From contig CAYFJW010000002.1 in the NCBI GenBank assembly GCA_964343875.1, positions 6,797-70,796 on the forward strand: a stretch of 64,000 nucleotides of DNA. Reading direction: 5' to 3'. This document shows positions 14,237 to 46,737 of the stretch, piece by piece. The stretch is from Candidatus Woesearchaeota archaeon. GTDB taxonomy: Archaea; Nanobdellota; Nanobdellia; SCGC-AAA011-G17; UBA489. How positions within the stretch are numbered: the stretch's first letter is position 1; each line of letters opens with the position of its first letter. The translations under genes were made by a program, and so were the position numbers. The notes under the pieces were generated by a model that worked only from the letters and a program-made list of their open reading frames with translations, did not search any database and was not told the DNA's origin.

Positions 14237-14245
14237 TTAAACCCA

Positions 14246-23956: not shown

Positions 23957-23989
23957 CCTTGATTCATATTGTCCTAAAGAACTGTGATA

Positions 23990-24529
23990 CTATGCAGAAG
24001 AGATTGTGCCTTCCTTCAGATGTTTATACTGTACATCTTTAATTAACGAGTTCAATGAAACCTCCTCTTTAGATAGATCCCTCATCCGCTGATTAATGAT
24101 TGCTACTATAAATTGCTTATACAACAAGAATGAAGCTATACTAAGTAAGATCAAACTAGTTATTATTGCCCACCAGTACTCACCGAGGAACCAAAGAATG
24201 TTTATTTTTCCCTTAGTTTCTAGAATGTAAATAAGTTGAGCTTCCTTTGCCCTTTCCAATGATTCCTTAAAATCTTCCCTCTCAAATGCCTTAACAGCCA
24301 GATTTAATGCAATTTCTGTATCTTCAACAAATAGCCGTTTTTCTTTTGCGCCAGATATCCAATTATTAGTCTCCTCAATTAAGCGATTAGCTTCAAAAGC
24401 CATCTCCCCCTCATCAATGACCTGCTCAGCAAGAGTCCACGCCACTCCGAAATCTTCTGATTCAAAGGCATTTTCTGCCTCGGATATCCAAGCCTGAAGC
24501 TTGGTAACAGGGAATTCAGCAACCTTCAT
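23990..24529 (-). CDS. C-terminal TM-anchor module, probably the C-terminus of the giant surface protein
   Basis: Single TM WWAIITSLILLSIASFLLY plus cytoplasmic tail; its frame is open upstream and joins segment 3 if the A7 run at 24562-24568 is read as A6. Confidence 0.45.
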   Translation of the reverse strand: MKVAEFPVTKLQAWISEAENAFESEDFGVAWTLAEQVIDEGEMAFEANRLIEETNNWISGAKEKRLFVEDTEIALNLAVKAFEREDFKESLERAKEAQLIYILETKGKINILWFLGEYWWAIITSLILLSIASFLLYKQFIVAIINQRMRDLSKEEVSLNSLIKDVQYKHLKEGTISSA

Positions 24530-24545
24530 TTCCCTAATAATCTCC

Positions 24546-26342: not shown

Positions 26343-26498
26343 CTTAAAATTCTTATTAGAACTAGTATTTGTGTTAGGATTATCGTCATTACATTGTACT
26401 CCCCAAGTATGGGCACCTTCAGATATCCCAGCTTTTGTAAAAGTAGTGTAGGTTGCATTGCTAACTGCCCCATTGGTTTGATCTATGATATCATCTAT

Positions 26499-28655: not shown

Positions 28656-28775
28656 TAAAGTTGTTAGATTAGTCTCAGCACTATAGCTAGTGCCATCCCA
28701 CGTTCTATAGCCAATTATACTATCAGCAGCATCACTATTTTCATAAACAATTAATGCATCTCCAGAAAGATCTTC

Positions 28776-30164
28776 TTAAGCTATGTCAAAGCCCCGGTAT
28801 GCAGAATTTTCAGCAGTAGCAGTAACTTCTTGTAAATTCCCCCATGTAGAAGAATCAAATACTTGGACATTAATATCATTCCCCTTATCATACGTACCCA
28901 ATATGATCTCATTCCTCTCATGATTACCCTTAACAACGGCCCAAGTTATATCGTTAACAGTATCCGTTCCCACTGATTGAGCACTTGATTCAGCTTCAAA
29001 ATCATTTGTGTCATTCCATTTCCTATACCTCGGCGTAGCAACATTGGCCTCCCCATAACTAATAATCCCGTCCGCATGTGTAGAATTAATTACATCATCA
29101 TGTATGAAGTCAAACTCTAAGAAAGCAGTTCTGTTGTGATGATATATCGGAGAGTCACAACTTTCTTCAACCCAACCATAACAACCCTCATAAGGATCCT
29201 CATCACATGATAAATAACCTTCATCCAAACATTGTGTGTACTCCTCTAAAGGAGAATTAACCCTCAATACCTTGAAATCAAACACATCTGTTGGCCCAGT
29301 TAATCCTGTAACAGGTATAAATTGCACCTCGGGATAATCTATTACCCCCGACTTTCCAACTAAATGCGTTGTTCCTTCTTCATAAATCTCAAAATAAGTT
29401 AAAGTACCATTACTTCTTGCAAGAATGTCAATCATCCTTCCATCAGTTAGATTTTCTACAAATGTAACACGGACATATTCATCAGTATAAATTGCTTCAG
29501 ACCAATTAGCATCAACAGCCTTGATTTCATCAAAAATATTATTAATAAATCCATAGGTCTCATTCAAATGAACAGCATCACTTACATTAATTTCTCCAAA
29601 TCCAGGATCGTGAGGAGTTAACTCAAATGAATACTCTTCTCCAGGAATAATATCCTGTAAGAACTTCCATTCCCCATAACAAGCTTGCTCCTCAAAATTC
29701 CAATCCTTACATTTGTATAGCGCAGTACCCTTCGCCGTGGCAGTTACAGTTGCATTAGTGAACGGAACTTCTTCGGGATCAATAGCATAAACTTCAACGA
29801 ATTCAACTTCTTCAATCTTCTCTTCAGGTACATCATCCACACCCAAAACAACAGTTTTTTCACTAACATTTAAATCTTCAAATATAATTGTCTCAACAGG
29901 ACCATCATCCATTTCAACAACTACCTTGTGTTCTCCTTCTTCAACAATTTCAATCGTAGGCAAATCAGAGTCTATAACAGCAATCACATCCTCTGTTTCA
30001 CCCTCTAAAATTTCTGCGACGAATTCCACATCTTCCCCATTACTGTCATTAATTTCAATATCAACAATAACTTCATCCGATATAGGAACTTCACCTTCAG
30101 CAAGAACAAAAATAGCTAGCAAAGAGATTACAATTGTCACAAGAAGCAATAATCTCTTATTCAT
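28776..30164 (-). CDS. surface protein segment 1 (signal peptide and N-terminal domain)
   Basis: Signal peptide MNKRLLLLVTIVISLLAIFVLAEG; ends at TAA but the frame continues coherently into segment 2. Confidence 0.6.
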   Translation of the reverse strand: MNKRLLLLVTIVISLLAIFVLAEGEVPISDEVIVDIEINDSNGEDVEFVAEILEGETEDVIAVIDSDLPTIEIVEEGEHKVVVEMDDGPVETIIFEDLNVSEKTVVLGVDDVPEEKIEEVEFVEVYAIDPEEVPFTNATVTATAKGTALYKCKDWNFEEQACYGEWKFLQDIIPGEEYSFELTPHDPGFGEINVSDAVHLNETYGFINNIFDEIKAVDANWSEAIYTDEYVRVTFVENLTDGRMIDILARSNGTLTYFEIYEEGTTHLVGKSGVIDYPEVQFIPVTGLTGPTDVFDFKVLRVNSPLEEYTQCLDEGYLSCDEDPYEGCYGWVEESCDSPIYHHNRTAFLEFDFIHDDVINSTHADGIISYGEANVATPRYRKWNDTNDFEAESSAQSVGTDTVNDITWAVVKGNHERNEIILGTYDKGNDINVQVFDSSTWGNLQEVTATAENSAYRGFDIA

Positions 30165-30304
30165 TTTTTCCCTTCCCCCACAATAAATTTGTCAATAGCA
30201 GTCTCAACAGCATGAGAGACATTCCTATATTTCTTAGAACTAAGGAGTTTTTTCAGATTCCTTACAGTAGACTCATCTAATGTAACAGAAATCCTCTCTT
30301 TCAT
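30161..30304 (-). CDS. ribbon-helix-helix (CopG/Arc-like) DNA-binding protein
   Basis: 47-aa ORF MKERISVTLDESTVRNLKKLLSSKKYRNVSHAVETAIDKFIVGEGKK (too short for the ORF track); its TGA overlaps the ATG of the surface protein gene. Confidence 0.45.
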   Translation of the reverse strand: MKERISVTLDESTVRNLKKLLSSKKYRNVSHAVETAIDKFIVGEGKK

Positions 30305-30406
30305 TAAAGAATACAACATAAATAATACTTTATAAGACTTTCTATTATTAAAGAATATTAAATAAAATCAAATCATATAAAGTATTACGTTAAAAACAAC
30401 AAAAAA

Positions 30407-30949
30407 TCACTCTGTTAGATCAATTACACTATCGCACAAAGGAGCCAGTTCCCCAATTAATCCCTTATCAGTTTTATCATCCAATAAAACAATAACACCC
30501 ACTAAATCATGCTCCCTCATTTTTTCTATAAGGAACCTAGCAAACCTAATTACGGTCTTCTCACTATGGTAAACCGACAATGCATTCAATGAGTCCAATA
30601 ACACAAATTCATGCTGCTTAATTTTATAAATTGGTTCTAAACAAATGCCTATGTGTGTTAAACTTTCTAAACTCCTTAAGAACACACAGTTGTCCGCTTT
30701 CTGTTCTTTCGCAGTAACACAATCAACGAATAATAGATTATCAGGATTTACTCCCTTTGTCTTCATTAATTTACTAACAACCTTATATGGGCTGTTCATA
30801 GAAAGATATGCCCCATCCATTTTATTTTTTTTGACAAGGATTTTAATTATATCCATCATTATTTCTTTATATCCCCTACTAGGAAGGATAACCAGAGAAA
30901 CATAATCCTCATCTACCCCTTCCAACGCATCCTTAAGCTCTTTTTTCAT
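30407..30949 (-). CDS. degenerate RecA/KaiC-fold protein (no Walker A), partner of the KaiC-like ATPase
   Basis: RecA-like beta-strand pattern (FVLLDSLNAL, GVIVLLDD) but no P-loop; start overlaps the stop of the upstream ATPase gene. Confidence 0.4.
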   Translation of the reverse strand: MKKELKDALEGVDEDYVSLVILPSRGYKEIMMDIIKILVKKNKMDGAYLSMNSPYKVVSKLMKTKGVNPDNLLFVDCVTAKEQKADNCVFLRSLESLTHIGICLEPIYKIKQHEFVLLDSLNALSVYHSEKTVIRFARFLIEKMREHDLVGVIVLLDDKTDKGLIGELAPLCDSVIDLTE

Positions 30950-32121
30950 TAGTCGATTCCTCCAAAGACTTCTTGATCGGGGTAAACTGTGATCCCGTCA
31001 TCTGTAATCTGCATAGCAACAATTTTCTTATCGTGTTTAGCACCTCTCAGCTTTAAAACTTCTATGGCGTTCTCTCTTATATTTCCGCGTTTAATATTAT
31101 ATAAAACAATAACACCATCTGCAAGAAACTCTTCAACACCACTAGTACTAAAAATCTTAGGTATTTGCTCAGTTTCAGTAATCATAAAGGCTGTAGTAGA
31201 TATCTTTTCAAAGAATCTAAAAAGTTGCTCAATATAAATTCTATAACTATCTTCCTTTCCAGTAAAAGCAGAAGCAATTGCAGTTAATGAATCAACAATT
31301 ACAATATCTGGCTGAAAGTCAGAAGGGAATATAATTGGTTCAATATCAATCAAAAGCTCACCCTTAGACTTCATCAATAAAGCATCAACGCTCCTAGTAA
31401 TGTCAAAGGGATTAAATCTTTTAATTGCTAAGTTATTTTTTTTAATCAACTCATGCGGATTCCATCCAAAATCCTCCATATGTTGAATTAATCTTTCTTC
31501 AGACTCCTCAAAACTCATATACAAGCATTTCTTGCCTTTTTTTGCATGATGATTCAACATTTGCAAGCTTAGAATTGTTTTACCACTTCCCGCACCGCCT
31601 GCAAGAAGTATTGTAGATCCCTTTGGAACACCATCAAAGAATAAAGCATCAAAACCAGGAACACCGGTCTCAATAAAACCCTCCTTTGTTTTTTTACCAC
31701 TAATCTCTCCGACAGTTCTAGAGATTTCTTTACTCTCTGTAATCACCTTCGCTTCATGTTTTTTGATATTACCTGCTTTGATATGGCTTTCAATATCTTT
31801 TTTTATTTTAGAAAGATCAATTTTCTTTAAGTCAGAAATTTTACCTTCGCCTTTCTTTATATCTTCCTTTTCAATTTTCCTAACTTCTACATGGGGTCTG
31901 GATTTTTCCTTTCTATCTTTCGTCCAGTAATGAACCTTTGCCATATTGATCTTCCTAACATTAACATCACCCTTTCCAACCAATGCATGCAGCCTCGCAA
32001 GAACAGTGTGCCTAGCAAGCTTAGTACGCTTCATAACCTCTGCTATGGTCAAACCTTCAGAATGACTTTTTAGGAGATTCTCAATTTTATACCGGTGTTT
32101 GTCCTTTTCTCGCTTTGTCAT
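30949..32121 (-). CDS. wHTH-KaiC-like (RecA superfamily) ATPase
   Basis: N-terminal winged-helix (LTIAEVMKRTKLARHTVLARLHALVGKGDV), K/E-rich linker, KaiC/RadA-like domain with Walker A GGAGSGKT and Walker B VIVDSL. Confidence 0.7.
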   Translation of the reverse strand: MTKREKDKHRYKIENLLKSHSEGLTIAEVMKRTKLARHTVLARLHALVGKGDVNVRKINMAKVHYWTKDRKEKSRPHVEVRKIEKEDIKKGEGKISDLKKIDLSKIKKDIESHIKAGNIKKHEAKVITESKEISRTVGEISGKKTKEGFIETGVPGFDALFFDGVPKGSTILLAGGAGSGKTILSLQMLNHHAKKGKKCLYMSFEESEERLIQHMEDFGWNPHELIKKNNLAIKRFNPFDITRSVDALLMKSKGELLIDIEPIIFPSDFQPDIVIVDSLTAIASAFTGKEDSYRIYIEQLFRFFEKISTTAFMITETEQIPKIFSTSGVEEFLADGVIVLYNIKRGNIRENAIEVLKLRGAKHDKKIVAMQITDDGITVYPDQEVFGGID

Positions 32122-32574: not shown

Positions 32575-32802
32575 ATGAAAACAATCACAATTAAGCTACC
32601 CAAGGAAGAAGCAAAAAAGCTAGATCTATTCATCAAGGAACAGTACTACCCCTCTAAATCAGAATTCATAAGAAATCTAATCAGGAATAAACTTGAACAA
32701 GCCACAAAAGAGAAACAGGGTTGGTTGGCTCTAGCAGAATTATCATTAAAGAAGGTCTGGGATAATAAAAAAGATGATGAAACGTGGAGCCAATATCTAT
32801 GA
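32575..32802 (+). CDS. ribbon-helix-helix antitoxin (CopG-like)
   Basis: MKTITIKLPKEEAKKLDLFIKEQYYPSKSEFIRNLI RHH signature; 3' end overlaps downstream toxin. Confidence 0.6.
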   Translation: MKTITIKLPKEEAKKLDLFIKEQYYPSKSEFIRNLIRNKLEQATKEKQGWLALAELSLKKVWDNKKDDETWSQYL

Positions 32803-33134
32803 TTTCTCAAAGGGACTTATTGCTAGTTCCATTTCCCTTTTCAGATCAACAAGGAACAAAAGTAAGACCTGTAATCGCACTAAGTAACAATAAGTTTAAT
32901 TGTAATTCTGAAGATGTCATCGTAACAGCCGTAACATCCAATTTAACAAAAGAGAAATACTCCATAGACTTGTCTTCTTGTGACATGGAAGAAGGAATTC
33001 TCAATCAAGACTGTTGCATAAAAGCAGAAAATATTCTCAAGCTAGATAAAAACCTTATATTAAAAAAAATAGGAAAAATAAAACAAGAAAAACACAACCA
33101 AGTAATTAAACTAATAGAAGGGATAATTAATTAA
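32784..33134 (+). CDS. MazF/PemK-family endoribonuclease toxin
   Basis: RDLLLVPFPFSDQQGTKVRPVIAL motif typical of PemK/MazF. Confidence 0.7.
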   Translation: MEPISMISQRDLLLVPFPFSDQQGTKVRPVIALSNNKFNCNSEDVIVTAVTSNLTKEKYSIDLSSCDMEEGILNQDCCIKAENILKLDKNLILKKIGKIKQEKHNQVIKLIEGIIN

Positions 33135-36093: not shown

Positions 36094-36137
36094 AACTAAT
36101 AACTTTTATAAGGACATTAAAGACCCTTCTACCAGAT

Positions 36138-36223
36138 GCGGGAGTCCCATAGTCTGGTCAATTGGGCAGGACTTAAGATCCTGTGGCTTAGTGCCTGCGA
36201 AGGTTCGAATCCTTCCTCCCGCA
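36138..36223 (+). tRNA. tRNA-Leu (anticodon TAA)
   Basis: Acceptor gcgggag/ctcccgc, anticodon loop ctTAAga, long variable arm, T-loop ttcgaatcc; no CCA. Confidence 0.8.
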
Positions 36224-36295
36224 GTTAATTCCATTAATCGCACATACCTTGTTCTGGGGAATACATCTTAAACAGGGGTACCCCCTCTTAACAAC

Positions 36296-37021
36296 ATGTA
36301 TTCTAGTAAAAGTGCTCTCAAAATTCCAACAAAATGGACGGCAGATTTAGCATATTTTTGTGGTTTGATTACCGGAGATGGATCAATGCCAGATGCACAT
36401 TCAAGGAGACCAAATGGAAAGAAACAAAAAAGGTACATGATACACTTCTTTGGTAATTCCCCCAAGTTCATGAATGAAGTTTACATGCCTCTTTTTCACA
36501 ATCTTTTCGGGATAAAACCCCGCCTAACATTATCACACGGCAGGGGAAATCTACCAGTGCACAACTGTCGTAAGGAATCAAAAACAATCTACTTATTCCT
36601 CAGAGACAAAATAGGTTTATCTACAGGAAAAAAGGCAAAAATAGCACACGTTCCAAAAATGCCTAAAAGTTTTCAAATAAACTTTCTCGCTGGACTATTA
36701 GACACTGATGGAGGCAAAAAGGGAAGTGGGTTTGGGTTGTCAACTGCTAGCAATAAGCTAGGCAAGTTTTGTTGTGAAATGTTTGAGAGGTTAGAGTTGT
36801 CACATCATTCTTGTCCATGGAAATACAAGGGCCACATCTACCACCAGGTATATGTGCATAAGAGAGATTGCATAAAAATATTAGAGACAATACCTTTAAA
36901 AAATAAAGAAAAAATCGAATTTTTGCGTAGCACTGCCTCGGTGGTTCAGTCGGTAGAATACGTGCTTGGTAAGCACGAGGTCGTGGGTTCGATTCCCACC
37001 CGAGGCTCTCATAAAATTTAG
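36296..37021 (+). CDS. LAGLIDADG homing endonuclease (double-motif), free-standing between two tRNA genes
   Basis: Two LAGLIDADG motifs (FCGLITGDGS and LAGLLDTDGG); last ~28 codons of the ORF are translation of the downstream tRNA-Thr gene. Confidence 0.7.
   Translation: MYSSKSALKIPTKWTADLAYFCGLITGDGSMPDAHSRRPNGKKQKRYMIHFFGNSPKFMNEVYMPLFHNLFGIKPRLTLSHGRGNLPVHNCRKESKTIYLFLRDKIGLSTGKKAKIAHVPKMPKSFQINFLAGLLDTDGGKKGSGFGLSTASNKLGKFCCEMFERLELSHHSCPWKYKGHIYHQVYVHKRDCIKILETIPLKNKEKIEFLRSTASVVQSVEYVLGKHEVVGSIPTRGSHKI
36935..37007 (+). tRNA. tRNA-Thr (anticodon GGT)
   Basis: Acceptor gcctcgg/ccgaggc, anticodon loop ttGGTaa, T-loop ttcgattcc; no CCA. Confidence 0.8.
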
Positions 37022-38392: not shown

Positions 38393-38872
38393 ATGAAAAA
38401 CCTAAAGGAAAACTACTCAAAACTAGCAAGCCAGTTTGGCTTACCTTCATTTGAAGAGCTAGACAAAGACTTCGAATTGCTATACGTAAGAGAACTATTT
38501 GAAATAAGTAGACCTTTAGTTTTCATTAGAAGAAGAATCTGTGATAAGATTGGATGGACTTGTGGAATGCTACAAGGATTGATCCAACCAAATCCAGGAT
38601 CAATGTTAAGTATAGAAGAATCCTCATTCTTTTCAAAAGAAGAAAAACAAGACAACTTCGTTAAACTTCTAAAAGGATTGATGTACTACACTAGAAAATC
38701 AATCTACTTAGACATGGAATCAACAAATGAGGAAGAAGCAGAATTCATTAAGGAAGCATACAATAAGTGGCTTGAAACAAAACCAAAAATAAAGAAAATA
38801 TCTCAACAGCTAAAAGAAGGCTGGAAGAAGGAAAAAGAATCAAATAAAGAAACTAATAGCCACTTAGGATAA
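38393..38872 (+). CDS. hypothetical protein upstream of pilus locus
   Basis: ORF only; start trimmed to MKNLKEN to remove overlap. Confidence 0.3.
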   Translation: MKNLKENYSKLASQFGLPSFEELDKDFELLYVRELFEISRPLVFIRRRICDKIGWTCGMLQGLIQPNPGSMLSIEESSFFSKEEKQDNFVKLLKGLMYYTRKSIYLDMESTNEEEAEFIKEAYNKWLETKPKIKKISQQLKEGWKKEKESNKETNSHLG

Positions 38873-38902: not shown

Positions 38903-39514
38903 ATGAAAAAGGGGCAGGTGTACATTCTATCAGTCTTAATCATAGGGTTTTTATTATTTACAATAATAACCCCTGCAAACTTCATTCACCAAAGAGTCAT
39001 AGACGATGATTTTGAAGAACTATCAAAAAACTACCAATTAGAAAGTTCCAAGCTACTAAACGAATTATTAAATAAAGAAGGAACAGATGAAGCTGTAATT
39101 GACAACACCTTCCTTAACTTCACGGTATCTTTCACATCTTACTCCAAAACAAAGAACCCAAACTTCGGTTTAATCTACGCATTCCCTTATAATGAAAAAG
39201 TTTTCATTGGAAATTATGCCGATGTTCCAATTACATTTCAAACAAGAAGCACAACACAAACTTATTTGGATGGTTGTTTTAGCAAAGTGGACACCTCAGT
39301 TTCATTATACGGAATAAGTATTTCAGTCCCAGACATAAATCCCATCCTATACACTAGCTGCATATCAAGAATTAATTATCCGTCCGATGGAATCATCAAC
39401 TTCACAATTGAAGATATCAACTACAACTTCCAACTGCAAGAAAGAAGATCAGATATCATAATAGTCAGCAGAGAAGACCTAAAAGAAGATATTAAGGTGT
39501 TCATAAGCGAATAA
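38903..39514 (+). CDS. prepilin-like protein with class III signal peptide
   Basis: MKKGQ-VYILSVLIIGFLLFTII N-terminus (basic, Gly, then hydrophobic helix). Confidence 0.5.
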   Translation: MKKGQVYILSVLIIGFLLFTIITPANFIHQRVIDDDFEELSKNYQLESSKLLNELLNKEGTDEAVIDNTFLNFTVSFTSYSKTKNPNFGLIYAFPYNEKVFIGNYADVPITFQTRSTTQTYLDGCFSKVDTSVSLYGISISVPDINPILYTSCISRINYPSDGIINFTIEDINYNFQLQERRSDIIIVSREDLKEDIKVFISE

Positions 39515-39543
39515 TTAATAAACAAAAATACAATCAAATTAAA

Positions 39544-39993
39544 GTGCTATTAAACAAAAAAGCAATCACTCCAGCAATAAGCTTTATTCTACTAATTGGA
39601 TTAGCAGTAGCAATGGCCGGCATAGTAACAGTCTGGGTTAAATCCACTGCAGGAACTACTTCTGAAAAGTTAGTAAATAATGTAGACAAGGACATGAGAT
39701 GCACAGACACCTCATTCAATGCATACGAAACAGATGGCTTTACAAAATGTGCAGACGTAACCTTCCATAACCGAGGATTCTTCTCAATTTATGCAATAAA
39801 AGTCAGAACAGATAACAAAGTAGAAGATATTCAATTAACTACACCTTTAGTTCCCCAAGAAATCAGAGCAATAAGCTTAAATATTTCCAACATCCCTTCT
39901 GATAATAAGGTAGGACTTATTCCAATCATAGAAGTCAAGGAAGAGCTCCTCGCATGCATGGCAAAGGAAATATCCATTGAATGCACTCCATAA
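39544..39993 (+). CDS. archaeal type IV pilin-like protein
   Basis: KKAITPAISFILLIGLAVAMAGIV class III signal peptide. Confidence 0.55.
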   Translation: MLLNKKAITPAISFILLIGLAVAMAGIVTVWVKSTAGTTSEKLVNNVDKDMRCTDTSFNAYETDGFTKCADVTFHNRGFFSIYAIKVRTDNKVEDIQLTTPLVPQEIRAISLNISNIPSDNKVGLIPIIEVKEELLACMAKEISIECTP

Positions 39994-40457
39994 AAATGAG
40001 ATCAAAAAAAAGAAAAGGTGTTTCTCCGATTGTAGCAACTACAGTCCTAATTGGATTTACAATAGCAGTAACATCCATTGTTCTCTTATTCGGTGGAGAT
40101 ATTCTTGAAGATGTCCAAAAGAAACAGGGAATTAATTTAGAAAGAACGTTACAATGTGACGCAATGCACTTCAAGGTTACAGGGATGTCAGGAGGAAGAA
40201 TTCAAGTAACAAATGATGGAAATGAAGATATTCATGCATTCCTAATACGTTACATGGGATCAGACGCAGAAAGTATTGATTCACATCATAGAGTAAGTAT
40301 ACCTCAAGGAGGCATAGGGGAGATTATTCTTTCAGGTGGTCCTGGTATAGGAGTCTTAGAAAAAACAAAGATTTATGCTAAGTCTGCAGCAGGTCCAAAA
40401 GGCAATATCATCTGGGGAACCTGTGGAGACACAGAAACAACAGTGACAGTTGCATAA
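39981..40457 (+). CDS. archaeal type IV pilin (DUF361-type N-terminus)
   Basis: RKGVSPIVATTVLIGFTIAV matches the archaeal pilin/archaellin N-terminal consensus. Confidence 0.65.
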   Translation: MHSIKMRSKKRKGVSPIVATTVLIGFTIAVTSIVLLFGGDILEDVQKKQGINLERTLQCDAMHFKVTGMSGGRIQVTNDGNEDIHAFLIRYMGSDAESIDSHHRVSIPQGGIGEIILSGGPGIGVLEKTKIYAKSAAGPKGNIIWGTCGDTETTVTVA

Positions 40458-40496
40458 TAGTTAAGTTTAATAATAGAAAAGAGTGAATAAAAGAAG

Positions 40497-40985
40497 ATGA
40501 GAAGGAACAAAAAGGGGATTTCACCATTAATCGCAACAGTTCTATTAATTGGTTTTGCAGTTGCCCTAGCAGCAGTTGTTATGACTTGGGGCCTAGATTT
40601 TATTAAAAACACGGCAGATGCTACCGAAAGCCAAACAGAAAACACATTAATTTGTGCTTCAGATCTTTCTTTTGTAATTTCAGACGTAAATCCTTCAGCA
40701 GGCAGCGTAACTGTTGATAACCGTGGGCAAGTTGATATTAAATCCGTAATCTTTAGAATATATGGGGCTTCAGGGGTTGACACTATTGATTCGGCCAACG
40801 GAGAATTAAATCCGATGTCAATACCTAAATTCGGTGTAAAGAAATTTGTAGATGGCAATGGAACAGCATTATTTGACTTCCTACAAACGGCAACAAAGGT
40901 TGAAGCAGTTGCAACAGTCGGTGGAGATGCAGGCGAAGAAGACATAGTCTGCCCACAAAACATCCAAGAGTATAACATTCAATAA
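40497..40985 (+). CDS. archaeal type IV pilin (DUF361-type N-terminus)
   Basis: KKGISPLIATVLLIGFAVALAAVV. Confidence 0.65.
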   Translation: MRRNKKGISPLIATVLLIGFAVALAAVVMTWGLDFIKNTADATESQTENTLICASDLSFVISDVNPSAGSVTVDNRGQVDIKSVIFRIYGASGVDTIDSANGELNPMSIPKFGVKKFVDGNGTALFDFLQTATKVEAVATVGGDAGEEDIVCPQNIQEYNIQ

Positions 40986-41000
40986 TTTTCTTAAATATTC

Positions 41001-41537
41001 ATGACTTCAAAAAAGAGGAAAGGCCAGATTTGGATCTCTGCAGTTTTATTTATCTCACTAGGAGTAATTGTTATTTCATTAATCTTGGCAGCAGCAATTC
41101 CAATGGTCAACAGAATCTCAGACAAAAACACAGTAGTAAGAACAAAGGAAATATTGCTAAAAATGGATGATGCAATAAAAACCGTAGTTAACGAAGGTCC
41201 GGGTTCTCAAAGACAGCTAGATCCATTAATCATAGACCGTGGAGAACTACACATTACCAATAACACTTACAAAATCCTCTGGCAGATGGAAACAGAATCA
41301 GACCTAATGGAACCCAATATTGAAATCGTTGAAGGGAACATAAAACAAAGACTAAATACTACGATAGTAGAAGAAATATACGAAATTAATCTCTGGGTTG
41401 AATCAGAGAGAATCAATATCACCCTAAACACTCCTTTCACAAGCCCTTTCAAAGGAGAGTATATCATCACAGTAAAGCACACAGGAGACTTCACAGCAAC
41501 AGACGATAATCCAATCATAGAGCTTAAGGTTACATAA
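41001..41537 (+). CDS. prepilin-like protein
   Basis: KRKGQ-IWISAVLFISLGVIVISL class III signal peptide. Confidence 0.5.
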   Translation: MTSKKRKGQIWISAVLFISLGVIVISLILAAAIPMVNRISDKNTVVRTKEILLKMDDAIKTVVNEGPGSQRQLDPLIIDRGELHITNNTYKILWQMETESDLMEPNIEIVEGNIKQRLNTTIVEEIYEINLWVESERINITLNTPFTSPFKGEYIITVKHTGDFTATDDNPIIELKVT

Positions 41538-41617
41538 TTCAACACATTCTTCAATAAGAAACTATTAAAAATCCTAAACTTCTCATATCTATACTCGTAA
41601 TAGAGAGGGGTGTAAGT

Positions 41618-43204
41618 GTGAGTTTATTGAATAAAGAAGGTCCTTCTATTCCTGCTCCGGCTCCAGAAGTAGAGTTCAGGATAGAGAAGGCAAAAGACAT
41701 TCCAGTCCTACCTGATTTCTCAAACAAAAGAGAGATCGATGTAAAGTATCCTCTATTAAGTCCCTACTCTTATGTACATATTCACTGGGATGAAAATGAA
41801 AAAGAAGTTATGTACAAGATAATGGAACCTCCATTAAGCGAAGATGAAAAAAGAATTCTAGCGTCATTAGAAAAGGGAATTGAGGAATTAATCAATATAA
41901 GCTTCATTAATATTAAAGAAGAATCAGCAGTAATCTCCTACTTAGAAAAGAATGCAAAAGTTCTACTTTCAGAGTTAGGAATTAAACTTCCAAGGGATGT
42001 TTTCATGAAGTTAATGTATTACATCTACAGAGACTTTGTTGGACTAAACAAAATAGAATCCATGATGCACGATTACTACATCGAAGATATAGAGTGCAAT
42101 GGTTCAAACACCCCTTTATACATCGTGCACAGAAAATACAGAAACCTAAAGACAAATATATCTTTCCAATCAAATGATATTCTTACTAGCTTTGTAGAAA
42201 AACTAGCTCAAAAGTGTGGCAAATATATTTCATATGCAACACCAATACTAGATGGAAGACTCCCGGATAAAAGCAGAGTTAATGCAACATATACGCAAGA
42301 TATCTCTTCAAGGGGCCCAACATTCACAATACGTAAGTTCACAGCAGAACCATGGAGCCCAATCAAACTAATAGATGTAAAAACTGCAAGCCCCGAACTA
42401 TTAGCATACTTATGGATGTTAATAGAATACGAATCAAATATTGTAATAATTGGAGGTACAGGTTCGGGTAAAACCTCATTCCTAAACAGCATAGCATTCT
42501 TCATGCCACCTCAATCAAGAATTGTATCAATAGAGGACACACATGAACTTAATCTACTCCACTCCAACTGGCTACCTTCCGTATCACGTGAAGCAACAGG
42601 TGTAGGTGGTGAAAGTAAACTAGGAGAAGTATCTTTATTCACACTACTGAAGGCAAGTTTCAGACAGCGTCCAGACTACGTTATTGTTGGAGAAATTAGA
42701 GGCCAAGAAGCATTTATCCTATTTCAGGGAGCAGCGTCAGGACACCCCACAATGTGCACAATGCACGCAGAAGATGTTGAAACAATGATAAGAAGACTTG
42801 AAACACCACCAATTAGTCTACCTCCAGCATTAGTTGAAACCCTCGATGCAGTATGTGTAATGACTCAAACAAGAATAAGGGGCCAAGAAGTAAGGAGGCT
42901 AAGAAACATTACAGAAATCATGAAAGTTGGAACAAAGATTGGATCCTTAGATAAGAACACACCATTCATATGGGACCCACAAACAGATAAGTTCCTATTC
43001 AAGAAAGAAAGCTTTATTTTTAACAAACTAAAGAAAGAATACGGCATGAAAGAAGAACAAATAAAAAAAGAATTTGAAAGAAGAACATTACTTCTCTGGG
43101 AGATGTACAAAAGAAAGATCTTTGGATACCAAGAAGTCCACCAAATAATAAGTGCTTATTACAAAACCCCTGAAGAAGTTCTAAGAAGATTCAACATTAA
43201 ATAA
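41618..43204 (+). CDS. type IV pilus/archaellum assembly ATPase (PilB/GspE/FlaI-VirB11 family)
   Basis: Walker A IIGGTGSGKTSFLN, Walker B/Asp box, His box; GTG start with upstream gagagggg RBS. Confidence 0.85.
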   Translation: MSLLNKEGPSIPAPAPEVEFRIEKAKDIPVLPDFSNKREIDVKYPLLSPYSYVHIHWDENEKEVMYKIMEPPLSEDEKRILASLEKGIEELINISFINIKEESAVISYLEKNAKVLLSELGIKLPRDVFMKLMYYIYRDFVGLNKIESMMHDYYIEDIECNGSNTPLYIVHRKYRNLKTNISFQSNDILTSFVEKLAQKCGKYISYATPILDGRLPDKSRVNATYTQDISSRGPTFTIRKFTAEPWSPIKLIDVKTASPELLAYLWMLIEYESNIVIIGGTGSGKTSFLNSIAFFMPPQSRIVSIEDTHELNLLHSNWLPSVSREATGVGGESKLGEVSLFTLLKASFRQRPDYVIVGEIRGQEAFILFQGAASGHPTMCTMHAEDVETMIRRLETPPISLPPALVETLDAVCVMTQTRIRGQEVRRLRNITEIMKVGTKIGSLDKNTPFIWDPQTDKFLFKKESFIFNKLKKEYGMKEEQIKKEFERRTLLLWEMYKRKIFGYQEVHQIISAYYKTPEEVLRRFNIK

Positions 43205-43209
43205 TCAAG

Positions 43210-43392
43210 ATGCACATAAGTTCAATAAAACAAAATGCTCAAAGTATAATTGACGCATATGAAACTTACTCAAAAACAGCTCTAGCTCCAAACAAAGACA
43301 CTAAAAAACTAGCAAGGTTAAAAAAATACATTCTAAACCTAGCTGAAGATATCTCTAAAAAAGCAAAGGAGATGAGATTTGATGTCCATTAA
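43210..43392 (+). CDS. small hypothetical protein between ATPase and platform genes
   Basis: 60-aa ORF; weak. Confidence 0.25.
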   Translation: MHISSIKQNAQSIIDAYETYSKTALAPNKDTKKLARLKKYILNLAEDISKKAKEMRFDVH

Positions 43393-44653
43393 TGACAGTG
43401 CTAAAGAGATCATTACTTTGGTCTCCAGATTCGAAAATGAGTCTAACCCTGCTAAAAAGGCCAAAATCCTAGAGAGTATAGGGGATGTAAGTAACAAAAT
43501 AAAAGAAGAAATCTCCTCCGACAAATCACCAACATACTACGAAAATGTTATGCAAAACATTCCCCCTTCAAAAAAAGTAGATCTAACTAAAAAAACTGTA
43601 AAAAAAGCACCAAAAAAACAAGTTAAAAGAAAGAAACAAAAAGTCCTTACAGCAAATAAAAGGAAGGAACTTCTAAGAGATATCAACGTTGAGGAGGACG
43701 ATCTAAAAAGAGTTTACAAAACAAAGAAGAAAAAACATCAAGAAAACTATGATTTTACAGTTTACGTACCAAACACATACGGAACCTTATCGAACAAATT
43801 CTTTGGAGAACTTACAGATAGGCTACTCAAGAAAAAAAGTCCATTAGTAAAACATCTATCGGACTCAGTTAGAATTTCTGGCATGAACATCCTATCAAAA
43901 ACATATGTAAGCACGGCATTCTTCTCAACATTCTTCGGAGCAATAATCCTTGCCGTTCTTGCAGTGCTACTAACGGCTGCAGCAGGTTTACAAATTCCAA
44001 TTGTTATTCTTTCAGGATTATTCACATTACTAGCAGGAGCAGCATTAATCTTCGGGATTATGTATGCATATCCTGCATCAGAAGCTGCAAAGAAATCCAA
44101 AGCAATAAACAACGACCTACCATTCGCAATCATCCACATGGCCGCAGTCGCAGGTTCAGGTGCACAACCAATTGCAATCTTCAAATTACTACTAAAATCC
44201 GAGGAGTACAAGGGCTTAGAGAGCGAAATAAAGAAAATTGTAAACTTCGTTAATTTATTTGGTTATGACTTATCAACCGCATTAAAGAACGTATCACTTA
44301 GAACACCTTCAAAGAGATTAAAGGAATTATTAACGGGAATCGCAGCCACAATTGAATCTGGGGGAAGTTTGAAATCTTACTTAGGTAGTGTTGCAGATGA
44401 TTCAATGAACACTTACAGGTTAGAAAGAAAAAAATACGTAGAATCTTTATCAACATACTCAGATATCTACACAGGAGTCCTAATTGCAGCACCACTATTA
44501 CTAATGGTTACACTAGCAATAATAAACATGATGGGGGGAAAGATTGCAGGATTATCAGTTGCATCAATTGCATGGTTTGGAACGTTAGCAGCCTTACCGG
44601 TAATTAACATATTATTTTACTTATTCCTAAATATAACACAACCCGAAGATTAG
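43379..44653 (+). CDS. TadC/FlaJ-like pilus platform membrane protein (one T2SSF domain)
   Basis: Cytoplasmic N-domain then TM helices and a T2SSF-like segment (ESGGSLKSYLGSVADD). Confidence 0.7.
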   Translation: MMSINDSAKEIITLVSRFENESNPAKKAKILESIGDVSNKIKEEISSDKSPTYYENVMQNIPPSKKVDLTKKTVKKAPKKQVKRKKQKVLTANKRKELLRDINVEEDDLKRVYKTKKKKHQENYDFTVYVPNTYGTLSNKFFGELTDRLLKKKSPLVKHLSDSVRISGMNILSKTYVSTAFFSTFFGAIILAVLAVLLTAAAGLQIPIVILSGLFTLLAGAALIFGIMYAYPASEAAKKSKAINNDLPFAIIHMAAVAGSGAQPIAIFKLLLKSEEYKGLESEIKKIVNFVNLFGYDLSTALKNVSLRTPSKRLKELLTGIAATIESGGSLKSYLGSVADDSMNTYRLERKKYVESLSTYSDIYTGVLIAAPLLLMVTLAIINMMGGKIAGLSVASIAWFGTLAALPVINILFYLFLNITQPED

Positions 44654-44654
44654 A

Positions 44655-45503
44655 ATGGCAAGGATAAAATTCAAGACAGCGTATCTTTTAAGCATAATGC
44701 TAGGAATAGTCATCATCGCATTAGATGTTGTCTTCTTGTTAAAGACAAGACTATTCTTCCCAGTATTAATTGTTACACTACTATTTGCAAGCTTACATTT
44801 CTGGATAGACTTCTTCTCAGAACAAAAAAGACAAAAAATAATAGAATTTATGTTCTTAAACTTCACAAGAAGCTTGGTAGAGTCAGTTAAGTCAGGAGTA
44901 TCAATACCAAGATCAATCCAAAATGTCTCTAAAAAGAACTACGGACCTCTAACGCCCTATATTCAAAAACTTGCACACCAAATAGAATGGGGAATCCCAA
45001 CCAAAAAAGCACTTCAAACATTCTCAGAAGACACAGGAAACAAAGTGATTAAGAGATCAATTTCACTAATGATTGAGGCAGAACAGTCAGGAGGGGACAT
45101 AACAGACATTCTTTCTTCAGTTGTGGGGTCAGTTGTTAACATAAAGAAAATGAAAGAAGAAAGAAAGGCAATGGTCCACTCACAAGTTGTCCAAGGTTAC
45201 ATAATTTACTTTGTATTTATTGGAATAATGCTCGCCTTAGATCTATGGTTATTCCCTCAACTAGGTAAAACTTCTGCAGCATCAGCTGGAAGTATTGGAG
45301 GCTTGGGTGGAATCTCCCTTGGTGGTGCAGGTTCATTTGACTTGGGGCCAGTATTCTTTACACTAATAATAATTCAAGGGTTCTTTGCAGGAATAATGAT
45401 CGGTAAGTTCTCAGAGGGAACATTAAAAACAGGTTTATTACATTCATTAATCATGATGGTTTCTGCAGCGTTAATCATAACAACATTAAAGGGTGGAATC
45501 TAA
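44655..45503 (+). CDS. TadC/FlaJ-like pilus platform membrane protein (second paralog)
   Basis: T2SSF-like segment (EAEQSGGDITDILSSVVGSV) flanked by TM helices; 2 nt after the previous gene stop. Confidence 0.7.
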   Translation: MARIKFKTAYLLSIMLGIVIIALDVVFLLKTRLFFPVLIVTLLFASLHFWIDFFSEQKRQKIIEFMFLNFTRSLVESVKSGVSIPRSIQNVSKKNYGPLTPYIQKLAHQIEWGIPTKKALQTFSEDTGNKVIKRSISLMIEAEQSGGDITDILSSVVGSVVNIKKMKEERKAMVHSQVVQGYIIYFVFIGIMLALDLWLFPQLGKTSAASAGSIGGLGGISLGGAGSFDLGPVFFTLIIIQGFFAGIMIGKFSEGTLKTGLLHSLIMMVSAALIITTLKGGI

Positions 45504-46291
45504 TGAATAAAAAAGGTCTAGCGTATGTTGATTGGATAATTAGCCTAAGTTTGTTCATTGTTACAGTTTTAATGATATTTGCATTCCTCCGTCCAGGAGT
45601 TGAACCAACTTTTGAGTCAAAAGATTTAATCAACATTGTTGAAAAAAACTTCTTAGAAGAAAACTCTTGGGAAATGGTCAGCATTCCTGTAGCCATCCAA
45701 AACATAGAGAACAACTCCTATTCTGTTATTCTAGAGCACACAGGGCTCAGCGAATGGAACTTCATAGGTTACACCTCAGCACAAGACTTAGATAATTTAC
45801 ACCTCATCGCAACAAATACATCATCAGAAATATCAATAACGTGTAAGGTAGGTTACTACAACTGTAAAACAGAAATAAGTTCTGGTGGCCAATCTACTCC
45901 CGGAATCTACGCAATATCAATTGAAAAAGAATGGGTTGGACCAAATAAAGTTTTTGAAATGGAAGATCGATGTTCCCTACAAGGTCCGCCAGATTCATGT
46001 GTCTATGTACTAGGATCAAAAGAAATATTTAAAGGTTTAAGTGAAAAAAGAATATACAATCTTGTAACTGGATCAGCAAAATACTCTGACAAGAAGGAAG
46101 ATTGGAACTTCCCAGATTCAAGAGATTTCTCAATTTATTTAGATTACATGAATGGAACCTTAATTAAAGCAACATCTCCTGAGTTTGAACCATCTGACCA
46201 AACAAACGTCTTTGTAAAAGTAATCTCTATGTCAATCCTAAAATCAAACGGAGAGAGAATCCCCGCAAGGGTTAATATCAGAGTATGGTAA
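45503..46291 (+). CDS. prepilin-like protein
   Basis: MNKKGL-AYVDWIISLSLFIVTVLMIFA class III signal peptide. Confidence 0.5.
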   Translation: MNKKGLAYVDWIISLSLFIVTVLMIFAFLRPGVEPTFESKDLINIVEKNFLEENSWEMVSIPVAIQNIENNSYSVILEHTGLSEWNFIGYTSAQDLDNLHLIATNTSSEISITCKVGYYNCKTEISSGGQSTPGIYAISIEKEWVGPNKVFEMEDRCSLQGPPDSCVYVLGSKEIFKGLSEKRIYNLVTGSAKYSDKKEDWNFPDSRDFSIYLDYMNGTLIKATSPEFEPSDQTNVFVKVISMSILKSNGERIPARVNIRVW

Positions 46292-46737
46292 ATAAAAAAG
46301 GATTCATAAGGACATTGGAAGCAGTTCTGGCAATCATTTTATTATTAACAATAATTTACATGACAACACCAAATCAAGAAATAGATATTTCTAAGCCAAA
46401 TCCAATAAAACAAGCACACTCAGCTATCTTTTCAGAAATTTCAACGAACCAAGACTATAGAAACTGCCTACTCAATGAAATAGCAAACCATGGAGCCCTG
46501 AACAACGCAAAAGGCCAATATACAGGGTCTATAATCCCTCACAACTGCATACAAGAAATAAACAACTTTATAATCGCCCACACGCCACATGGATATGTTT
46601 ACTTAGCAGAAGCATGTGCACAATCAAAATCCTGCCTTGATCGAAACCTTCCAGCAGAAAAATCAATATTCTCAGAAAGCATTATGTTAGCATCAGATAA
46701 TCCAAAAGTATTCAGAGTTTACTTTTGGGAAGAATAG
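46285..46737 (+). CDS. prepilin-like protein
   Basis: KKGF-IRTLEAVLAIILLLTIIY, reminiscent of type IV pilin G-F...E N-termini. Confidence 0.5.
   Translation: MVNKKGFIRTLEAVLAIILLLTIIYMTTPNQEIDISKPNPIKQAHSAIFSEISTNQDYRNCLLNEIANHGALNNAKGQYTGSIIPHNCIQEINNFIIAHTPHGYVYLAEACAQSKSCLDRNLPAEKSIFSESIMLASDNPKVFRVYFWEE

Follow-up and report, generated by a model that had tools for sequence, protein, structure and literature searches.

Gene Content and Organization of the Locus

Whether a cluster of prepilin-like genes in a DPANN archaeon encodes a pilus, and of which kind, is the question raised by positions 38903–46737 of the analysed window (a stretch of 64,000 nucleotides from a Woesearchaeota contig). 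On the forward strand of this region, class III (prepilin-type) N-termini are found in seven ORFs, which are accompanied by one ATPase gene and two platform genes with a single T2SSF domain each (Table 1). A sequence-only reading had taken it for an archaeal type IV pilus locus in which seven prepilin-like genes accompany a single ATPase gene and a platform protein in two parts; this core reading holds, and all of the ORFs were recovered on the + strand at the positions it gave. The locus is a real, complete-looking operon for a type IV pilus, i.e., a thin surface filament, in a tiny DPANN archaeon of the Woesearchaeota, and it is highly probable that it represents a single operon for a non-motile pilus (type IV filament, TFF). 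The affiliation of the host with Woesearchaeota is borne out by relatives at 95% ATPase identity, which are named Woesearchaeota MAGs.

The genes of the locus are tightly spaced or overlapping (−14 to +80 bp), which is consistent with an operon, and the GC content is that of the remaining window. The gene order p1-p2-p3-p4-p5-ATPase-(s60)-platform-N-platform-C-p9-p10 is conserved in about 50 loci of Woesearchaeota, Nanoarchaeia and Pacearchaeota MAGs, the most distant of them sharing about 50% ATPase identity. Outside DPANN, the closest loci recovered were mostly from Bathyarchaeia (33–39% ATPase identity), and some of these loci have a split platform.

Table 1. Genes of the pilus locus and its accessory genes, in window coordinates (a slash marks the predicted cleavage site).
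Feature	Position	Strand	Length (aa)	Description
u2	38393..38872	+	159	Cytoplasmic protein; candidate accessory gene upstream of p1
p1	38903..39514	+	203	Prepilin-like protein, MKKG/QVYIL; putative minor pilin
p2	39544..39993	+	149	Predicted pilin paralogue, GTG start, NKKA/ITPAISF
p3	39981..40457	+	158	Predicted pilin paralogue, KRKG/VSPIVATTVLIGF
p4	40497..40985	+	162	Predicted type IV pilin, NKKG/ISPLIATVLLIGF
p5	41001..41537	+	178	Prepilin-like protein, KRKG/QIWISAVLF; putative minor pilin directly upstream of the ATPase gene
ATPase	41618..43204	+	528	Assembly ATPase, GspE/FlaI/VirB11 secretion-ATPase family
s60	43210..43392	+	60	Hydrophilic ORF between ATPase and platform genes; conserved small protein
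platform-N	43379..44653	+	424	N-half of platform protein, T2SSF 2.9e-16
platform-C	44655..45503	+	282	C-half of platform protein, T2SSF 6.1e-16
p9	45503..46291	+	262	Prepilin-like protein, NKKG/LAYVDW; putative minor pilin or adhesin, variable length
p10	46285..46737	+	150	Prepilin-like protein, NKKG/FIRTLEAV

Assembly ATPase and Split Platform

The proposed assignment of the ATPase to the PilB/GspE/FlaI family was confirmed by its match to Pfam T2SSE (6.8e-31) and by the presence of all of the expected motifs, namely Walker A (GGTGSGKT) at 279, the Asp box at 305, Walker B at 354 and the His box at 375. Among solved structures, the nearest is A. fulgidus GspE2 (2OAP, 361 bits), followed by FlaI (4II7, 254 bits) and CpaF (141 bits). 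In total, 5179 homologues were found, and the best 120 of the 5179 share 58–95% identity with the ATPase.

The two adjacent single-T2SSF genes noticed in the sequence-only reading correspond to the N- and C-halves of FlaJ: platform-N aligns to positions 5–250 and platform-C to positions 272–536 of the 555-position FlaJ model, so that the platform is truly split. Platform-N has TM segments at 180, 367 and 391 and a Lys-rich cytoplasmic extension of about 170 aa with a net charge of +17, and its relatives occur in two forms, a long one of ~420 aa with s60 in front of it and a short one of ~340 aa that lacks s60. Platform-C has four TM segments and shows weak paralogy to platform-N (24% over 203 aa, E = 0.003). 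Every Woesearchaeota and Nanoarchaeia locus examined encodes platform-C as a gene of its own; a fused ORF of 575 aa was found in two Bathyarchaeia loci.

Prepilin N-Termini and Pilin Families

All 104 window ORFs of at least 80 aa were searched for [KR][GA] among residues 1–25 with a hydrophobic stretch of 20 residues behind it. This class III-like pattern was present in six of the seven claimed prepilins and in only one of the 97 other ORFs, a DoxX membrane protein (Fisher p = 3e-8). The remaining prepilin, p10, was missed only because of R+3 and E+6; it keeps KKG, and the TM helix predicted behind it spans residues 6–24. Each prepilin family retains its own [KR]-G cleavage motif across 17–44 orthologues, and the Gly after Lys/Arg at the border of the basic and hydrophobic parts is invariant or near-invariant in every family, which upholds the earlier identification of these N-termini as prepilin-type. 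A search of the window for a class III signal peptidase detected none, as the sequence-only reading had noted, and neither did a search of about 13 kb of flanking sequence from the source contigs; processing is therefore assumed. A GxGD regex search across 80 related loci matched a single platform protein and no peptidase. In Woesearchaeota, flaK is reported from most MAGs, and pilin or "archaellin type IV" genes are among the top-expressed ones (PMC11606122).

Three of the seven products, p2, p3 and p4 (149–162 aa), are predicted to be paralogous pilins with globular domains: p2 and p3 share 35% (92 aa, E = 2e-11) and 29% (140 aa, E = 1e-17) identity with p4, respectively. The N-terminal domain model of archaellins and type IV pilins (TIGR02537, cut-off 20) scores 35 bits with p4, 19.9 bits with p3 and 17.0 bits with p2; the Pilin_N score of p2 (16.1 bits) is also under the cut-off. 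The p4 family profile matches the solved archaeal pilus subunits 8FK7 (4.4e-11, residues 3–120) and 8REY (4e-5), and the predicted +1 residue of p4 (I8) aligns with the residue at which mature 8REY and Iho670 begin. By sequence comparison, p2–p4 are homologous to solved Sulfolobales/Ignicoccus-type pilins. The helix of p4 is nearly invariant in 41 orthologues and the pair C53/C152 is conserved; because of this conservation, p4 was chosen as the best candidate for the major filament subunit. The p3 motif is conserved across 17 orthologues, and an alternative start 15 bp downstream, adopted in another gene call, would give a protein of 153 aa. In p2 orthologues, the −1 position is G or A.

The other four proteins, p1, p5, p9 and p10, are termed putative pilins from their N-termini and genomic context alone. 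Among 25 orthologues of p1 (TM helix at residues 6–24), K2, G4, Q5 and Y7 are invariant, a DDFEE..NY..ES motif is conserved past the helix, and none of the 25 members matched a Pfam family. The 44 orthologues of p5 share the motif G-x-[IV]-W-[IV]-S-A-[VA]-L-Y, with W11, P34, R71 and G81 invariant; p5 has no Pfam family match and only marginal PDB matches (bacterial FliD, E = 0.02–0.08), and its relatedness to p1 is confined to the N-terminus. The p9 proteins range from 207 to 504 aa and have weak family matches only; p1, p5 and p10 have no family assignment. Structure models of p9 and p10 matched no solved pilin. The p10 model is confident and suggests a novel-looking alpha/beta globular domain. 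The comparison of p10 with bacterial "G-F...E" pilins proved inexact, as its invariant Glu lies at +6 after the Gly (G/FIRTLE), not at +5.

Based on these features, a mechanism of assembly can be proposed. [quoted passage not shown] A hexameric ATPase would dock on the two-polypeptide platform formed by both halves of the FlaJ/TadC-type protein, and its use of ATP would lift the pilins from the membrane into a helical filament. The filament body may consist of p4 and its paralogues p2 and p3, with the single-copy, family-specific p1, p5, p9 and p10 as possible low-abundance subunits that prime assembly and/or act as tip adhesins.

Alternative Functions

DNA import is often proposed for nucleotide-auxotrophic ultra-small cells, and p4 (30.7 bits) and p3 (18.3 bits) weakly resemble UpsA. 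A pilus serving DNA uptake or exchange (Ups/Com-like) instead of host attachment is nevertheless improbable: the UpsA score is far under the cut-off of 130, those for UpsF, at 58.6 and 33.5 bits, do not come near 400, and no Ced/ComEC-like or DNA-processing gene occurs in the locus or its flanks. Gene content by itself does not discriminate between adhesion and DNA uptake.

It is quite improbable that, in place of a long adhesive filament, the locus specifies a short surface structure of the pseudopilus or bindosome type for the display or secretion of proteins, e.g., substrate-binding proteins for nutrient scavenging. Scavenging would benefit a metabolically reduced DPANN cell, and it has been argued in a 2026 preprint that binding proteins with class III signals functionalise many TFF machineries of archaea; weak similarity to the BasE (210 bits) and BasF (36 bits) models was also detected. 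However, the respective cut-offs (1000 and 1300) are far above these scores, a substrate-binding-protein domain is missing from all seven class III proteins, no ABC transporter adjoins the locus, and the homology of p4 to subunits of true filaments is full-length.

An archaellum (motility) operon, as implied by KEGG-style annotation of Woesearchaeota MAGs (flaB/flaI/flaJ), is highly unlikely. Close homologues of the ATPase are labelled "archaeal flagellar protein FlaI", the top NCBIfam models are FlaI for the ATPase (396.7 bits) and ArlJ/FlaJ for the platform, and flaB, flaH, flaI, flaJ and flaK are listed in Woesearchaeota MAGs (PMC11606122, PMC5994134). However, the FlaI score does not reach 550, the cut-off of the equivalog, and FlaJ scores of 113 and 58 bits stay far under cut-offs of 400–570; the closest solved ATPase is afGspE2 rather than FlaI, and p4 matches pilus subunits. 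According to Makarova 2016, seven components, among them FlaH, FlaF and FlaG, are common to all archaella. No match to archaellin (PF01917), FlaF, FlaG, FlaH, FlaX or FlaC/D/E was found among the locus proteins at E <= 0.1, in agreement with the sequence-only reading, which had seen no accessory genes (FlaC-H). The sole KaiC-like gene lies 9.5 kb away on the opposite strand and, with 54 bits, falls short of the ArlH cut-off of 215. Thus, gene content largely refutes the archaellum.

It is scarcely credible that the N-termini represent ordinary Sec signal peptides or simple membrane anchors clustered by coincidence, a view favoured by the four proteins of seven (p1, p5, p9, p10) without a pilin family match and by the two modelled ones (p9, p10) without a pilin-like fold match, and opposed by the Gly at the basic–hydrophobic border in every family, the strong enrichment of the motif in the locus, the alignment of the p4 cut site with the first residue of its homologues' deposited chains, and the co-linearity of all prepilin genes with the ATPase and platform genes in about 50 loci.

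Comparison with Known Systems

As a locus for a non-motile type IV pilus, which may serve adhesion to surfaces or host cells, the region resembles several described systems. Conserved type IV pilus loci of DPANN archaea have already been published (Makarova 2016; Hamm 2024; Sivabalasarma & Albers 2026), two-gene platforms are reported for TFF systems of DPANN (bioRxiv 10.64898/2026.04.22.720090), and the present locus adds a well-preserved example to a known kind of system. Hamm 2024 (PMC11291902) describes conserved loci in cluster-2 DPANN and names the same host group, Woesearchaeota, together with Pacearchaeota; their core of a CpaF/FlaI-like ATPase, TadC and PilA-type filament proteins is shared. 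Those loci encode coiled-coil proteins; in the locus studied here, the corresponding neighbourhood contains a small hydrophilic ORF and a platform extension that is long and charged. The coiled-coil proteins described there are large and sigma-1-like, and nothing of that size is found here, Locus 1 and Locus 2 being compared at the level of their description. The four minor-pilin families and the split platform are not described in the part of that text covered.

The label "Epd/Tad-like" held only for the two-gene platform. Like Makarova clade 1 or TFF System 1, to which the Epd pilus of Methanococcus maripaludis belongs, the locus has two adjacent TadC-like platform genes, one ATPase and at least five minor proteins with class III signals; System 1 is reported in DPANN. 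However, Epd major pilins are ~70 aa long, lack a globular domain and are encoded elsewhere (Makarova 2016), whereas all pilins here have at least 149 aa, and the dedicated EppA peptidase, the DUF2341/PilY-like adhesins and the frequent MinD of Epd loci are absent. The bacterial Tad/Flp system (TadA/CpaF, TadB, TadC) similarly divides its platform between two single-T2SSF proteins and has a related ATPase, but the ATPase studied here is much closer to archaeal GspE2 and FlaI than to CpaF. Flp pilins are very short with a G/xxxxEY motif, and the present locus, from a cell with an archaeal envelope, has no secretin, TadZ or TadD.

Euryarchaeal PilA-type pili (System 2, Makarova clade 2; e.g., Haloferax volcanii PilA1-6 with PilB3C3) resemble the locus in their paralogous pilins, which are arranged in tandem and have a hydrophobic helix of Pilin_N/TIGR02537 type that is strongly conserved, in a PilB3_C-like C-terminal domain of the ATPase (19.8 bits for the window protein, 30 bits for orthologue P0015), and in a minor pilin of variable length, p9 being reminiscent of arCOG02911. 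Many clade 2 loci have two tadC genes (Makarova 2016). In the 2026 classification, however, System 2 has single-gene platforms and ATPases with extended N-termini, whereas the platform here is split, and the Pilin_N scores of the present locus are under the cut-off. Subsystem 4A (Thermoproteota, some Nanoarchaeota, Bathyarchaeota) has two platform proteins in its DPANN members and, as here, accessory genes downstream of the platform gene; Bathyarchaeia also provide most of the nearest non-DPANN relatives of the present locus. The pilin families of 4A are arCOG11238 and arCOG06117. It also has a PilY-like adhesin, and the present locus has no gene of adhesin size.

In ultra-small Saccharibacteria (CPR) episymbionts, type IV pili mediate host binding (cited in PMC11291902 and PMC11623550). 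By this analogy, a host-attachment role of the Woesearchaeota pilus is plausible. The likeness is functional only, as the Saccharibacteria system is bacterial (PilB/PilT/PilC and bacterial pilins) and has no locus-level homology.

Accessory Genes u2 and s60

Two conserved cytoplasmic genes of the locus, u2 and s60, had been overlooked in the sequence-only reading. Both, s60 together with the Lys-rich extension of platform-N, probably act at the ATPase–platform interface. No name in the sources and no significant Pfam, NCBIfam or PDB match was found for u2, which lacks a TM segment. Of 13 related loci with a u2 orthologue (27–81% identity), most carry it immediately upstream of p1, and the invariant residues of u2 include Y8, P18, F27, R46, P66, E76, W126 and W144. 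The s60 product likewise has no TM segment and no family match; its gene is called on all four of the contigs carrying the locus. In about 25 related loci with the long form of platform-N, the same gap holds an ORF of 54–91 aa with the N-terminal motif MSL..IK.NA, and ORFs of this type frequently overlap the stop codon of the ATPase gene.

Organization and Conservation of the Pilus Locus

The interpretation of the locus as one encoding an archaeal type IV pilus, which had been proposed from the sequence alone, proved to be right at its core. All ten ORFs named in that sequence-only reading are real and lie on the plus strand with exactly the coordinates assigned to them: seven encode prepilin-like proteins with class III N-termini (p1–p5, p9 and p10), one encodes an ATPase, and two encode the single-T2SSF platform proteins platN and platC. 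The spacing between the locus genes (−14 to +80 bp) is typical of one operon, and the GC content of the locus (0.35–0.37) is the same as that of the remaining window. A scan for sigma-70 promoters and terminators returned counts at or below shuffle expectation, the sigma-70 model being uninformative for an archaeon.

For comparison, 80 related loci were fetched with the ATPase as the query. The order p1-p2-p3-p4-p5-ATPase-platN-platC-p9-p10 is kept in approximately 50 loci of Woesearchaeota, Nanoarchaeia and Pacearchaeota, down to about 50% ATPase identity. The exact ATPase is present on contigs of ~164 kb from metagenome runs ERR2281800-802, and its nearest relatives (79–95% identity) belong to Candidatus Woesearchaeota or Nanoarchaeota MAGs, several of which originate from marine samples.

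Two further genes of the module, u2 and s60, had been missed in the sequence-only reading, and with these included the full module comprises 12 genes. Orthologues of u2 are found in 13 related loci, in most of them directly upstream of p1, and share several invariant residues, while no match to u2 was obtained in Pfam, NCBIfam or PDB. The small ORF s60 is among the called genes of all contigs that carry the locus, and its equivalents, ORFs of 54–91 aa starting MSL..IK.NA, occupy the same gap in ~25 related loci. It goes together with an extension of platN that is cytoplasmic and rich in Lys (~170 aa, net charge +17); the lineages with a short, 340-aa platN have neither s60 nor this extension.

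Features of the pilus module, of related ATPase ORFs and of other genes in the window (slashes mark the predicted class III cut or the borders of an insertion)
Feature	Coordinates	Strand	Description
Pilus locus, p1 to p10	38903-46737	+	Ten ORFs
u2	38393-38872	+	159-aa cytoplasmic protein
p1		+	Conserved N-terminal motif [KR]G/Q.Y
p3, p4		+	Conserved N-terminal motif K[KR]G/[IV]SPLIATVLLIGF
p5		+	Conserved N-terminal motif G/x[IV]W[IV]SAVLY
ATPase	41618-43204	+	528 aa
s60	43210-43392	+	60-aa hydrophilic ORF between ATPase and platform
platN	43379-44653	+	Single-T2SSF platform protein
platC	44655-45503	+	Single-T2SSF platform protein
p9		+	Conserved N-terminal motif KG...[VI]DW; Gly5 and Asp10 invariant
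p10		+	Conserved N-terminal motif KKG/[FY].[RK]T.E; Glu12 invariant
ATPase ORF of related MAG	L067:311-3514		Insertion inside Walker A, GSGK/C...VHN/TSF
ATPase ORF of related MAG	L064:9899-12982		Insertion after Asp box, SIED/S...VHN/T
ATPase ORF of related MAG	L057:9935-12922		Insertion before His box, FQGMS/S...LHN/SGHP
NrdR and ribonucleotide reductase genes	11630-16757	+	Large subunits of 714 and 679 aa
Minus-strand run	21626-32121	-	Ig-like/NEW3 and other genes
5-TM protein	21626-22192	-	188 aa
DUF7504 protein	30407-30949		Member of KaiC-like ATPase pair
KaiC-like protein	30949-32121	-	Member of KaiC-like ATPase pair; KaiC, 177 bits
Toxin-antitoxin pair	~32575-33134	+	RHH antitoxin and PemK/MazF-type toxin
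tRNA-Leu(TAA)	36137-36224
LAGLIDADG-type ORF	36296-37021	+	241 aa; motifs GLITGDGS and GLLDTDGG
tRNA-Thr(GGT)	36935-37008

Assembly ATPase and Split Platform

The protein proposed to be a PilB/GspE/FlaI-family ATPase matches Pfam T2SSE (6.8e-31), and its Walker A (GGTGSGKT), Asp box, Walker B and His box motifs are intact. Against solved structures, it scores 361 bits (9e-107) with Archaeoglobus GspE2 (afGspE2, 2OAP) and 254 bits with FlaI (4II7). Similarly, the two adjacent membrane proteins described as single-T2SSF contain one such domain each (2.9e-16 and 6.1e-16), and platN and platC align to positions 5–250 and 272–536, respectively, of the 555-position FlaJ model. "Split" is the right word for this platform, because the two proteins together reconstitute one platform protein. 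Internal duplication is known in PilC/GspF/FlaJ proteins, and the weak paralogy of platN and platC (24% over 203 aa) fits such a duplication. The platform is encoded by two genes in all of the ~50 order-conserved loci, and a fused platform ORF of 575 aa is found in two Bathyarchaeia loci.

In three related Woesearchaeota MAGs (L067, L064 and L057), the pilus ATPase ORF reaches ~1,000 aa and carries an insertion of ~470–540 aa, located at a different site in each. Since these insertions start with Cys or Ser, end in HN and contain internal GDG-type motifs, they suggest an intein that carries a LAGLIDADG endonuclease. The ATPase copy in the window is without an insertion.

Class III N-Termini and the Predicted Major Pilins

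A scan of all 104 window ORFs of at least 80 aa required [KR][GA] among residues 1–25, with a stretch of 20 hydrophobic residues after it. Six of the seven proteins claimed as prepilins were found, together with a sole other ORF, a DoxX-type membrane protein, so that class III-like N-termini are enriched in the locus (Fisher p = 3e-8). The seventh, p10, was missed for no other reason than Arg at +3 and Glu at +6 (counted from the first residue after the predicted cut); its N-terminus has KKG and then a helix predicted to be transmembrane. Each prepilin family has orthologues in 17–44 of the 80 related loci and keeps its own motif at the basic/hydrophobic border, and these motifs are borne out in the family alignments. 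Such family-by-family conservation lends stronger support to the predicted class III signals than the window scan does, and the claim of seven prepilin-like N-termini is upheld.

For p4, the sequence evidence for a predicted class III signal is direct. This protein passes the archaellin/pilin N-terminal model NCBIfam TIGR02537 (35 bits; cut-off, 20), and, among solved structures, its family profile matches the archaeal pilus subunits 8FK7 (4.4e-11, over almost the whole length) and 8REY (4e-5), with Ile8, the residue after the predicted cut, aligned to residue 1 of the mature 8REY and Ignicoccus Iho670 chains. The Natrinema PilA2 chain is matched by the same profile at E = 0.48, and PF07790 (Pilin_N) scores 15.6–16.1 bits in the locus pilins (cut-off, 25.2). 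Paralogy with p4 is seen for p2 (E = 2e-11) and p3 (E = 1e-17).

Putative Minor Pilins

The conserved cleavage motif and fixed operon position of p1, p5, p9 and p10 suggest that these four proteins are minor pilins. No Pfam family was matched by p1, p5 or p10 in any of their 25–38 orthologues, and weak DUF7287 matches were obtained for 8 of the 37 members of the p9 family. Profile-profile comparison revealed that similarity among the four is confined to the N-terminal 16–19 residues, bar one weak internal match between p9 and p1 (48% probability), which rules them out as recent paralogues. Profile searches of PDB with p1, p9, p10 and u2 returned nothing significant. With the p5 profile, FliD, the cap protein of the bacterial flagellar filament, was matched repeatedly but marginally (E = 0.02–0.08, alignments of ~125 residues); this likeness is not significant and is an unproven lead, curious for a protein proposed to act at a filament end.

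The p10 family comprises 1,902 representatives at 50% clustering, all of them unnamed or "hypothetical". AlphaFold modelled p10 with confidence (pLDDT 92): after the N-terminal helix come three more helices, which pack against a sheet of three strands; conserved cysteines are found in the alignment. The fold search with this model gave no significant solved-structure match, and no pilin was among the matches listed. The likening of p10 to bacterial "G-F...E" pilins does not hold. Conservation of G6 reaches 90% or more, and almost all members have F or Y at +1, yet the invariant Glu (E12) is located at +6, not +5, and the model does not have the bacterial alpha-beta-roll pilin fold. As regards p9, which varies in length across its family, a helix and a mostly beta domain were modelled, confidently in one of the five models only, and in the fold search Cache sensors and Ig-like adhesins were matched weakly and no pilin was found. 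In its variable length, p9 may recall the arCOG02911-type minor pilins (250–550 aa, all-beta) of euryarchaeal PilA-type (clade 2) pili.

Prepilin Peptidase

In line with the initial observation, neither the Pfam lists of called genes nor Pfam searches run directly on the stretch that these lists leave uncovered revealed a prepilin peptidase in the window. No class III (A24, PibD/FlaK/EppA) peptidase is present in the Pfam lists for the ~13 kb flanks on the source contigs, and none was found when multi-TM ORFs of the window and of 80–86 related loci (within 10 kb) were scanned for GxGD[VAILMF][KRA]. A superficially FlaK-like protein (188 aa, 5 TM, Asp14 and Asp82) was rejected as a peptidase because it has a weak ECF/ABC_cobalt match only and no NCBIfam or PDB match. 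Archaeal class III peptidases are usually encoded away from the pilus locus, and the simplest reading is that the enzyme is encoded elsewhere in the genome. In most Woesearchaeota MAGs, flaK has been reported (PMC11606122).

Comparison with Known Type IV Filament Systems

The predicted secretion ATPase, two-T2SSF platform and p4 pilin represent three of the core components of an archaeal TFF system, to which a class III peptidase also belongs. The locus pilins and the PilB3_C-like tail of the ATPase seem closer to the euryarchaeal PilA type than to the Epd pilus. Of the "Epd-like" label given in the sequence-only reading, the two-gene platform stands, as it is common to the Epd pilus (TFF System 1) and the window locus. 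The remaining traits of Epd differ: its major pilin is ~70 aa long and has no globular domain, whereas all seven class III proteins of the locus are 149–262 aa, and its dedicated EppA-type peptidase, DUF2341/PilY-like adhesins and MinD are absent from the Pfam matches of the window locus and its flanks. Two-gene platforms have been described in System 1 (Epd; methanogens, DPANN) and in DPANN members of subsystem 4A (bioRxiv 10.64898/2026.04.22.720090), as well as in many clade 2 loci (Makarova 2016).

Homologues of the locus ATPase are often labelled FlaI, and flaB, flaI and flaJ are listed in papers on Woesearchaeota (PMC11606122, PMC5994134), but an archaellum operon is ruled against by the ATPase scores and the absent accessory genes. 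With the FlaI equivalog NF058587, the ATPase scores 396.7 bits, under the cut-off of 550. As had been noted, the locus contains no archaellum accessory genes; none of the ten locus proteins has a Pfam or NCBIfam match to archaellin (PF01917), FlaF, FlaG, FlaH, FlaX or FlaC/D/E at E <= 0.1, and the p1 and p5 profiles do not match solved FlaF or FlaG. No KaiC/RecA-like gene that could encode FlaH (ArlH) is found in the locus, and the sole KaiC-like gene, located 9.5 kb away, scores 54 bits with ArlH (cut-off, 215). FlaH, FlaF and FlaG are present in every archaellum (Makarova 2016). The common "fla/archaellum" annotation of these pilus genes is corrected by the present analysis.

Conserved T4P loci have been described in cluster-2 DPANN, Woesearchaeota included (Hamm et al. 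2024, PMC11291902). A 2020 preprint regarded type IV pilus components as "missing in DPANN genomes" and used pili to identify cells as CPR bacteria; the window locus and ~5,000 ATPase homologues contradict this assumption.

Proposed Assembly and Role of the Pilus

Prepilin insertion, leader removal and ATPase-driven assembly are established steps of type IV filament formation. In the pilus considered here, prepilins would be inserted in the membrane, their short basic leader would be removed by a class III peptidase, and an ATPase hexamer on the two-piece platform would build the subunits into a helical filament, in which they are held by their hydrophobic N-terminal helices. The shaft would be composed of p4 with p2 and p3, while p1, p5, p9 and p10 would constitute a priming or tip set, within whose helix bundle the buried acidic residues Asp10 of p9 and Glu12 of p10 (which has Arg/Lys at +3) might pair.

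The locus is not a new kind of machine, and its remaining novelty resides in the minor-pilin families, which lack annotation, and in u2 and s60, the two genes for cytoplasmic accessory proteins. The four large families of p1, p5, p9 and p10 would be the most likely carriers of host specificity. It is conceivable, albeit rather doubtful, that the Woesearchaeota/Pacearchaeota locus represents a distinct lineage-specific T4P subtype, with p1, p5, p9 (invariant Asp near +5) and p10 (invariant Glu at +6 and an alpha/beta fold that resembles no solved structure) forming a host-contact priming or tip complex and u2 and s60 acting as ATPase-platform partners. If so, the current 12-subsystem classification misses this subtype.

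DPANN archaea are considered to live in attachment to other cells. An adhesive or host-contact role of the type IV pilus may be proposed by analogy with the literature on DPANN (PMC11291902) and Saccharibacteria (PMC11623550). Woesearchaeota have few conserved operons for surface structures, of which the locus is one, and pilin genes rank among the most highly expressed Woesearchaeota genes in published metatranscriptomes (PMC11606122); the locus is therefore the obvious candidate for such contact.

Other Genes in the Window

The minus-strand run, ~7 kb from the pilus operon, encodes three large secreted Ig-like/NEW3 proteins (462, 718 and 598 aa), followed by two coiled-coil-like proteins and one 5-TM protein, and may be a surface or adhesin module. 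The KaiC-like ATPase pair is located upstream of this run. Between the tRNA-Leu and tRNA-Thr genes, the LAGLIDADG-type ORF, the 3' end of which runs through tRNA-Thr, may encode a free-standing homing endonuclease or be the remnant of an intron. On the source contig, the toxin-antitoxin pair has Pfam matches to RHH_1 and PemK_toxin. Downstream of the gene for NrdR lie two genes in tandem for the large subunit of ribonucleotide reductase, both with an ATP-cone and with a 145-aa ORF between them.
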